A stretch of 64,000 nt of DNA from Anaeromyces robustus (Eukaryota), in NCBI GenBank assembly GCA_002104895.1, contig MCFG01000246.1, positions 1 through 64,000 of the forward strand, written 5' to 3'. Every line of letters begins with the position of its first letter. Position 1 is the stretch's first letter. The notes under the pieces were generated by a model. That model was not told the DNA's origin, did no database searches, and was given only the letters and a program-made list of their open reading frames with translations. Shown here piece by piece: positions 45,187 to 48,100 of this stretch. The translations under genes were made by a program, and so were the position numbers.

Positions 45187-48100
45187 ATGCAAGAGCTTTT
45201 TGGATCAAAATTTCAATCCTTTAAACAGAAGCTTAAAGACATTTCTTCTAGAAGTTCCTCTAGAAGTAATAGTCCGTCTGAATCTATGAAAAAGCTTAAC
45301 CTTAATGCAAAACCAGAAGTTTATTACCCTGATTATTTAAAGTACGGTGAAACATTTTTAAAATTTGATAAATATGTTGATCATGAACCATATAAAGTTA
45401 CTATTTATTATAATGATGATATTAAAAGATTAGTTTTTTCTGGAAACCTTGAAGGTCAGATATTATTTTTATCATTAAATATTGATAATATAAAGAATTA
45501 TATTTTTTATTTTTTTATTTTTTTTTTTACAAAACTTATTATTTATAATATATATATATTAATATTTTTTTATATTGCTCTATTAATTTTACCATTAATA
45601 ATTTTAATATTAATGCTATATAAATATTTAATAATTCAAATCATAAAAGGAATTGACTTGGAAACTATTGAAGAAATTCGTTATGGTGGTGAAGGTCAAG
45701 ATTGGATGTGGAGAAGTTTGAGAAGATATTCTGATTTAAGAAAAAGAACTATGACAATTATATTTAAAAAACTCGGCTCTTATCAAATGTATCATTTTGG
45801 TAATATTATATTAATATATATTTAAAATTAAATAATTAAAATTATTATTAAACATAATAAAATATGTTTTGTTATATATGTATATATTTCTTACATTTAT
45901 ATAGCTGCTGATACGGAAACTTTGGCTATTAAATGGTGTGTCGGTATAAGAGATTACTTAATTTGTAGAAACCAAGAATTACTTTTCGAAAAATTAAATG
46001 GAATTATTGACAACGATGTATATCCTTTTTTAAATACATAAATATTCATTATTTTATATAATATTATATATTATTATAAATAAAAAATGGAATAAAAAAA
46101 TATATGTTATTTTCTTTAATTAATACATACTTGGTTAAAACGTACATTTGATGCAGCTGATGTCAACAAAAGTCAAAGTATTTCAGAAAAAGAATTAAAA
46201 GATTCTTTAAAAGCTTTGAATATAAAAATTAAAAGTAAAGAAAGAAAAAAGATTTTTTTGGTAAATATATATTAAAAAAAATTTTTTTTTCATTATAATT
46301 ATAAATAAATATAAATATATTAATTTTTTTTTTTAATTTTATAGAATTATACCTTTGGTAAAAGCAAATATTTAAATTATGATGAATTCGTTGCTTTCTT
46401 CTATGATTTAGATGAACGTGATGATGTTAGAAAAATCTTCAGAGATATTAATAAATACGGAGAATATATGAATTATGAAACATTCAAAGATTTCATTATA
46501 TATACTCAAAAAGTAAGATTGAAAATAATATTAAATAGTGTCAAAATGAAAAAAAAAAAAAAATAATAATAATAATAAAAATAATAATAATAAAATAGTA
46601 ATAATAAAATAGTAATAATAAAGTAATAATAATAATAATAATAATAATAGTAGTAATAATAATAGTAATAATTAATAAAATATTAATAAAATAGTAATTA
46701 AATAATAATAATAATAATAAAAATAAAAATTTATACATATATTATATATATAATATTAAAGATATTAATAACAAATATTATATATTTTATATTAATAGGA
46801 AAACTTTGATGATGCACAAATACGTTATTTATTCTATAAATTCCAAAGTTCAGAAAATGGTTTAAATTATAGAGATTTTGTTAATTATTTAACTTCAAAT
46901 GAAAATATGATAAATTCATTTGAAAAGATTGATGATAGTTATTCTTTAAATGATTATTTCATGGCTTCTTCCCACAATACGTAAGTTTTTAATTTTTATT
47001 TGCATCATGACGTAATAATAAAATTTAACATTAAAATATTAAAACCAAATTATTATTCTTTTTTTTTTTTTTTTTTTTTTCATTACAATGAAAAATTTAG
47101 TTACCTTGTAGGTAACCAACTTTCTGGTGGTGCATCAGTTGAAGCATATGTAAGATGTATTCAAAAAGGTTGCAGATGTATTGAAGGTAAAAAATTTTAA
47201 ATATTTTATTTTATTCATTAAAAATTATATTAATAATCCAATAATGAAAAAAAAAAAAAAAAAAAAAAAAAAAAAAAATAATATATCAATATTTATTTTT
47301 ATAAATATTATTTTAATTAGTTGATTGTTGGGATGGTCCACGTGGACAAGCAAAGGCTACTCATGGAGGAACTTTGTAAATAAAATATTAATTCATTATT
47401 TTTTATTTAAAATATGTTTATATATTATTAATAAAAATAAATACGTGCTAATAAATATTTTTTGTTTTGTTTTGTATTTTTTTATAGAACTGGTTATATT
47501 ATTGTTAAAGATATTCTAAAAGCTGTTGCTCTTTATGCTTTTAAGAAAACACCGTATGTTAATTTTTTTTTTTTTTAAGACAATTTTTTTTTATTAAATA
47601 ATAATAATAATAATAATAATAATAATAATAAGAATTAAAAAAAATCGTTTTTCATATATAATTAATGCAATATACTTCTATTATTATTATTATTATTATT
47701 ATTATTATTATTATTATTATTATTATTATTATTATTATTATTATTATTATTATTATTATTATTATTATTATTATTATTATTTTTTATTATTGTTGTTATG
47801 ATAACGATGATAATGACGATGATGATGATTTAACATTTATTTATTTATTTATTTATTTATTTATATTTATTTATAAAGTTATCCAATGCTTATTTCCTTA
47901 GAAAATCACTGTTCTATTCCTCAACAAATTACTTTAGCTAATGATATTCGTGAAATTTTAAAGGATAATGTTATTGTATGTCCATTTAATACAGAACTAG
48001 ATGCTTTACCATCATTAAATGAATTGAAATTTAAAGTAATTATAAAAGTTGAATTCAAACTTTCCTTTACTAAATCATTAGAAACTGGTAATGACGCAGC

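Follow-up and report, generated by a model that had tools for sequence, protein, structure and literature searches.

A U12-type AT-AC intron in a phospholipase C gene of the anaerobic gut fungus Anaeromyces robustus, and its probable counterpart in vertebrate PLC-delta genes

A phospholipase C (PLC) gene of Anaeromyces robustus is interrupted ahead of its first EF-hand by a stretch that begins with AT and ends with AC, and this raises the questions of whether the stretch is truly removed as a U12-type (minor) intron, whether its removal has any bearing on the output of the gene, and whether animal PLC genes carry the same intron. The gene lies within the stretch of 64,000 nt analysed here (64 kb; 'the window'), and the features on which the argument depends are the following.

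45187..49640, plus strand: PI-specific phospholipase C gene (delta-like), with 14 exons, 12 GT-AG introns and one AT-AC intron, encoding 833 aa
45905..46019, plus strand: exon 3, end of the PH-like region and linker (from RNA joints and alignment)
46020..46130, plus strand: intron 3 of the PLC gene, AT-AC, U12-type, 111 nt (from the RNA joint and sequence)
46020..46028, plus strand: U12-type 5' splice site ATATCCTTT, with 0 mismatches to TATCCTTT at +2 to +9
46039..46041, plus strand: first in-frame stop upon retention of the intron (computed)
46112..46120, plus strand: U12-type branch-point element TTCTTTAAT, with 2 mismatches to TTCCTTAAC
46129..46130, plus strand: 3' terminus AC (from sequence and RNA joints)
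46131..46260, plus strand: exon 4, 130 nt, first EF-hand (WLKRTFDAAD...; weak EF-hand Pfam matches below the curated cut-off, and a piece of the X2 contig set)

The protein of the 14-exon model is identical at 833/833 residues to A. robustus ORX77477.1 (P0155), so that the public protein of this species is already correct. Above the Pfam cut-offs, P0155 carries PF13499, PF00388, PF00387 and PF00168 (EF-hand, X, Y and C2, in order); its best PDB match is to rat-type PLC-delta1 entries (E 3e-88), and the top named matches beyond gut fungi are vertebrate PLC-delta1 and -delta4. For the PH domain there were zero Pfam matches, and residues 120–165 align to the end of the vertebrate PH region. The X–Y linker (window 48280–48420) is strongly acidic, as it is in auto-inhibited animal PLCs.

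The intron is in phase 2 and interrupts the Val codon ahead of the EF-hand-1 Trp. It starts with the letters ATATCCTTTT from 46020, has 9% G+C and a length divisible by three, and contains no AG dinucleotide within 46020–46130. Its removal yields ...NDV-WLKRTFDAAD and restores the full enzyme (833 aa), whereas its retention would bring in four in-frame stops and leave a 184-aa product ending ahead of the EF-hands; read-through into the intron gives V-Y-P-F. Scoring used the U12 donor consensus and the branch consensus TTCCTTRAY. The donor ATATCCTTT agrees with the U12 form [AG]TATCCTTT, from which the 12 GT-AG introns of the gene differ by 3–6 mismatches each. The element TTCTTTAAT has the fewest mismatches to the branch consensus among the gene's 13 introns and lies 10 nt from the intron end, within the ~10–20 nt usual for a TTCCTTRAY-like branch element; it departs from the consensus at 2/9 positions, both changes being C to T, and is nearly all A/T inside an intron of 9% G+C. 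The branch A is presumably 46119 or 46118. All that the initial annotation had read from the letters alone thus holds: the donor, the branch-like element 10 nt before the terminal AC, the lack of AG, the in-frame stop on retention and the EF-hand restored on removal.

How much weight such signals can bear by themselves depends on their frequency in DNA of this composition (the window has ~16% G+C). Taken by itself the donor motif RTATCCTT says little, with 13 sites in the 64-kb window against 5.9 expected. The combination of donor, branch-like motif and matching terminal dinucleotide occurs once in the window, at 46020, against 0.155 expected; since at least one full combination arose in 14.5% of 200 local dinucleotide-Markov simulations, the motif combination without RNA is suggestive, not decisive. 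Neither the other 12 RTATCCTT sites of the window nor those of the relaxed form RTATC[CT] have a combined branch and terminus signature, and the ones inspected by eye fall in exons, in AT-rich stretches or antisense to other features; the genes of the window that flank the PLC gene likewise have no U12 donor signature. The earlier remark that this is the only non-GT-AG intron here stands in so far as the other 12 introns of the PLC model are GT-AG and no other RTATCC-type site is donor-like; for the window at large it claims more than this, exon structures having been built for the PLC gene alone.

The decision was brought by RNA. Of 22 runs surveyed, 15 contain about half of the sampled words, near the exonic share, and four (three raw-read RNA runs and one contig set, X2) were aligned to positions 44920–46569. 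A joint from 46019 to 46131, which skips 111 nt with AT..AC ends and zero positional ambiguity (both=0), is present in all four, as the initial annotation had proposed that RNA reads should reveal. It is carried by 60, 65 and 41 reads in the three raw-read runs (from 32, 33 and 24 start places) and by an X2 contig of depth 32.9, while the neighbouring GT-AG joints of introns 1 and 2 have 63/82/68 and 71/93/89 reads. The AT-AC intron is therefore confirmed as real, and is excised precisely where predicted.

A different reading of the site would make the AT-AC structure an artefact, produced either by GT-AG splicing to an exonic AG, with GT46018 or a GT further upstream as the donor, or by an error in the assembly. 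There is indeed a GT two bases upstream of the donor, and 23 in-frame GT/GC-AG combinations are possible on paper (two of them from GT46018); each would delete 26–80 residues of a region kept in homologues. In the four runs, at a 1% threshold, AT..AC is the sole joint listed at the site, and no joint from GT46018, from any upstream GT, or to the AC at 46125–46126 is listed. The 23 alternatives, none of which is among the listed RNA joints, were rejected, and with them went the outcome against which the initial annotation had set its own reading, namely that GT46018 is spliced to an exonic AG. An artefact of either kind has, in our estimation, next to no probability.

Several further observations concern the same aligned stretch, beyond which introns 6–13 lie. 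The transcript starts at about 44943–44957, giving a 5' UTR of ~230–245 nt in which an upstream ORF of three codons lies near 44970. Intron 1 (45455–45649, 195 nt, with a weak GTCAGA donor) is spliced in the RNA, and the depth in its clean bins is close to zero; its length is a multiple of three and it has no in-frame stop, so that its retention would add 65 residues. The joint of intron 4 is missing from the joint table, where a repeat was skipped, and the X2 contig crosses intron 4 straight. No lariat-type joint was listed for the four runs in 44920–46569. Within the branch element, a C>T change at 46114 was seen in 6/7 (X20) and 3/3 (X21) intronic sense reads, from two start places each; these reads resemble the stray AT-rich alignments found in introns 1 and 2, are probably stray themselves, and were excluded from the evidence.

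Given that the intron is removed, which spliceosome removes it? AT-AC ends are found also in introns of the major class, in sodium-channel genes for instance, and such U2-type AT-AC introns have ATAAGT-like donors with major-type branch and pyrimidine signals. The fungal intron shares their termini and has a U12 donor, ATATCCTTT, instead. One might still suppose that the major (U2) spliceosome removes it as a relic, minor splicing having been lost or being on its way out, and a branch element that has drifted by two bases would fit this supposition, as would the U4atac of Neocallimastix californiae, which is putative only in the available part of PMC11347168. We regard removal by the U2 spliceosome as very improbable, because the donor matches the U12 consensus perfectly, in contrast to the gene's 12 GT-AG donors, and because relatives have genes for U11, U12 and U6atac along with over 100 minor introns. 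For N. californiae the same source gives 129 minor introns, with high-confidence U11 (1 copy), U12 (1 copy) and U6atac (2 copies).

Minor introns, with many or all of the minor snRNAs, are described for Neocallimastigomycetes, Piromyces finnis and N. californiae among them, and as absent from Dikarya; A. robustus is among the species of the supplement (PMC10639083, available parts). The minor introns of P. finnis and N. californiae belong to the same fungal class, and to the same intron class, as the PLC intron described here. An Rfam scan of the 64-kb window returned 0 matches. Considering these relatives, a functional minor spliceosome is likely to be present in A. robustus. That Dikarya lack the minor spliceosome and some early-diverging fungi keep it, as had been stated at the outset, agrees with PMC10639083 as far as that text is available, and the lineage-level claim that early-diverging fungi have minor splicing is already published; the PLC intron leaves our knowledge of which fungi have minor splicing unchanged. 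What the locus contributes is one AT-AC minor intron, verified by RNA reads, from an anaerobic gut fungus; it is well supported and ordinary for its group. The U12 signature first noticed in a fungal PLC gene does belong to an AT-AC intron of the U12 type, and the PI-PLC gene that carries it is from Neocallimastigomycota.

The reading that we prefer, and regard as very probable, is that of an ordinary U12-type AT-AC intron that is spliced efficiently from its PLC-delta-like gene, being the same intron as the vertebrate PLC-delta minor intron and inherited from the animal–fungal ancestor. In the mechanism that we propose, U11 would pair with the donor ATATCCTTT and U12 with TTCTTTAAT by way of two G-U wobbles; C to T changes in a branch element can pair with U12 in this manner. 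The branch A, at 46118 or 46119, would be bulged ~11 nt from the AC end, and U6atac, U4atac and U5 would catalyse the removal. The sole job of the intron would be to be removed, a retained copy truncating the protein at 184 aa. The AT-AC ends would have been kept in the fungus and in PLCD3, PLCH1/2 and PLCZ1, the donors of PLCD1 and PLCD4 having changed to GT.

Homologues from other gut fungi are informative about the site in this group. Among 14 gut-fungal matches, two stop short and 12 span the site, 11 of these with a gap-free join. The twelfth, P0007 (a Pecoramyces/Orpinomyces EVM model of 807 aa), lacks 26 aa around the site, and in shape and length it equals the 807-aa work-around from GT45965 to AG46156 that was enumerated for the A. 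robustus gene; P0164, a Logan-assembly protein from the 90% cluster of P0007, has the full join. Comparison of these proteins implies that the intron would be non-canonical in the Pecoramyces/Orpinomyces genus too, and an AT-AC intron explains the truncated public PLC model in Pecoramyces. The general expectation that GT-AG predictors mis-model such sites thus fits the Pecoramyces model P0007, which is wrong, but not the public A. robustus protein. Metagenome data were scanned for genomic PLC loci and the best 80 of 533 relatives were kept; exon 4 had a profile match in 37 and none in 43. Of the 37, 36 have no intron-like end at the site (being transcripts, or genes that lack this particular intron), and one locus, L009, is the exception. 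No genomic gut-fungal copy is among the best 80 of 533, the gut-fungal loci L001 and L002 being spliced.

Is the position of the intron shared with animal PLC genes? Fungal V178–W179 is aligned with H-W of PLC-delta1 and with Q-W of PLC-delta4, and the fungus–vertebrate alignment is gap-free from the W through the first EF-hand and beyond, with a 6-residue gap just upstream. Among 101 PLC-delta-type matches, 98 have the first EF-hand motif, and in 95 of these the W stands at the expected place. The remaining three comprise two models (Nothoprocta and Chelonoidis) that read QKLQ-QYPF or -QYPL and one with an insertion after the H; elsewhere, YP[FL] has 3 further occurrences in 76,416 residues. 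The two vertebrate models P0146 and P0086 have an insertion at about the next boundary (the end of exon 4), and in a turtle isoform an alternative first exon is joined right ahead of the W. The bird and tortoise models P0089, P0170, P0122 and P0171 are wrong at the minor intron, where they read through into the U12 donor.

Among human genes, the table of PMC6717393, in its available part, has minor introns in PLCD1, PLCD3, PLCD4, PLCH1, PLCH2, PLCZ1, PLCB1 and PLCB2, and PLCG1/2 and PLCL1/2 are absent from it. The minor intron of PLCD1 lies at chr3:38011674-38016490, and its donor region (GCA at the exon end, then GTATCCTTT) would be read through in phase 2 as Q-Y-P. In contig L009 an unbroken frame of 628 codons, beginning at the W, encodes a PLC-delta of animal-like type (47% to vertebrate proteins); ahead of this frame the contig has TTTTCTTAAC, then 12 nt, then an AG one base ahead of the W codon, with stops further upstream. 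To judge from these letters, L009 would have a U12-type acceptor here, in phase 2 and at the place homologous to the fungal site. The contig looks fully spliced except for this intron-like 5' part (region 1–252), and a donor-like GTATCATT is present at position 4.

The position matching PLCD1, the read-through of V-Y-P-F in the fungus as against Q-Y-P-F/L in the vertebrate models, and the acceptor of L009 indicate that the intron probably comes from the animal–fungal ancestor. The basis of the match to PLCD1 is a 12-letter table entry, the mis-modelled proteins of two species and one contig (L009). Codon and phase appear common to the fungal and human PLCD1 minor introns, which answers the comparison with animal PLC genes proposed in the initial annotation, and this apparent match is what is new here. 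We consider it highly likely that the fungal intron and the vertebrate PLC-delta minor intron are one shared ancestral intron, and PLC probably joins the genes whose minor intron predates the animal–fungal split. The same ancestral intron is probably also that of the PLC-eta and -zeta genes; we presume, from compatible exon-end letters and from the protein sequences, that in PLCD3, PLCH1/2 and PLCZ1 it stands at the fungal position.

The human splice signals themselves invite comparison with those of the fungus. In human PLCH1 the nine donor letters of the minor intron are identical to the fungal ATATCCTTT, and the branch element TTTTCTTTGACC is very similar to TTTTCTTTAATT of the fungal intron (PMC6717393, available part). 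From the same table, the minor donors of PLCD3, PLCH1/2 and PLCZ1 begin with AT, like that of the fungus, and have compatible exon-end letters, whereas those of PLCD1 and PLCD4 begin with GT; if the positions are confirmed, the fungus as outgroup suggests that AT-AC is ancestral and that PLCD1 and PLCD4 switched to GT donors. The minor introns of PLCB1/B2 have different exon-end letters and are probably at another site. Where lengths are known, the vertebrate PLC minor introns measure 447–7746 nt, compared with 111 nt in the fungus.

Common ancestry has to be weighed against the idea that the minor intron was gained independently in gut fungi, its match to the vertebrate position being a coincidence or a misalignment. 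Such a gain would sit easily with the 6-residue fungus–vertebrate indel just upstream of the site, and the best 80 of 533 metagenome loci include no intermediate lineage with the full intron at the DNA level. An orthology table (table S8) also bears on this point. Its identifiers for PLCD1 and PLCD3 are confirmed by labels, further columns are presumably those of PLCB1, PLCB2, PLCH1, PLCH2 and PLCZ1, and PLCD4 is absent from the file (PMC11347168, available part). In every PLC column located in that table (columns counted by hand) N. californiae has 'no_ortholog', and the table thus makes no PLC link; the probable reason is that reciprocal-best-hit pairing fails where one fungal gene faces many human paralogues. 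Independent gain is nevertheless distinctly improbable, given that the alignment downstream of the site is free of gaps, that the phase and the rare intron class are identical, that P0146 and P0086 show their insertion at about the next boundary, and that minor intron gain is described as very rare (PMC6865273, available part). In the same source, minor introns are present in 60% of phospholipase C genes. The word 'phospholipase' is absent from the main texts of PMC10639083 and PMC11347168 as available, and in the open literature we found no statement of a link between the fungal and human PLC introns, subscription journals and online intron catalogues being beyond reach.

With a shared ancestral intron as the preferred reading, there remains the suggestion of the initial annotation that the intron may rate-limit PLC expression. 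Sense depth over the first half of the intron was 0, 1 and 1 against 60, 65 and 41 spliced reads in the three raw-read runs, that is, a retention of ~0–2%. This value is a floor, since sequencing under-represents very AT-rich fragments and one part of the intron, being repeat, was passed over. The suggestion is thus unsupported, steady-state retention being low, though decay of retained transcripts could hide retention. The sense depth of 0/1/1 falls in the first bin of the intron, compared with 0–0.22 in the clean bins of intron 1, and in X2 a 151-nt unspliced contig covers the intron from end to end with a depth of 3, compared with 32.9 for the spliced form (~8%), though this contig may be DNA or a single molecule; the X2 depth table has no comparable signal in introns 1, 2 and 4 or at the start of intron 5. 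These retention data hint at slightly slower removal; no bottleneck was demonstrated.

It could be proposed, more specifically, that the U12-type intron doubles as a regulatory valve, slow removal, the premature stop and decay limiting PLC output under some conditions. The first-bin depth in the raw runs and the X2 contig, which has no match in introns 1, 2 and 4, would be in line with a valve. So would L009, which resembles a spliced transcript keeping only its U12-type intron, and the human PLCD1 and PLCD3 minor introns, which respond to minor-spliceosome inhibition in 2/9 and 5/9 data sets. Retention at the floor value in 3/3 raw-read runs (0/60, 1/65 and 1/41) and the uncertain origin of the X2 signal point the other way, as do the modest retention differences between Rhizophagus cell types, which disfavour a general regulatory role (PMC10639083, available part). 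A valve of this kind we hold to be unlikely. Still somewhat less likely, in our view, is that the ancient AT-AC intron at the PH/EF-hand boundary is a conserved control point, where low minor-spliceosome activity would lead to a decayed transcript or a PH-only 184-aa product and where gut fungi would use a divergent U4atac; the weakness of that proposal lies in the conserved regulatory role. In sum for this gene, there is no good evidence of regulation through the intron.

By Pfam, the genes neighbouring the PLC gene in the window (spans 3862–7230, 22213–23749, 29075–30585, 39749–42384, 52136–57777 and 60767–62650) encode a cullin, a BZW/5MP-like W2 protein, an armadillo-repeat protein (minus strand), a LIM-domain protein and two tandem P-type ATPases, the first of which has phospholipid-flippase domains.
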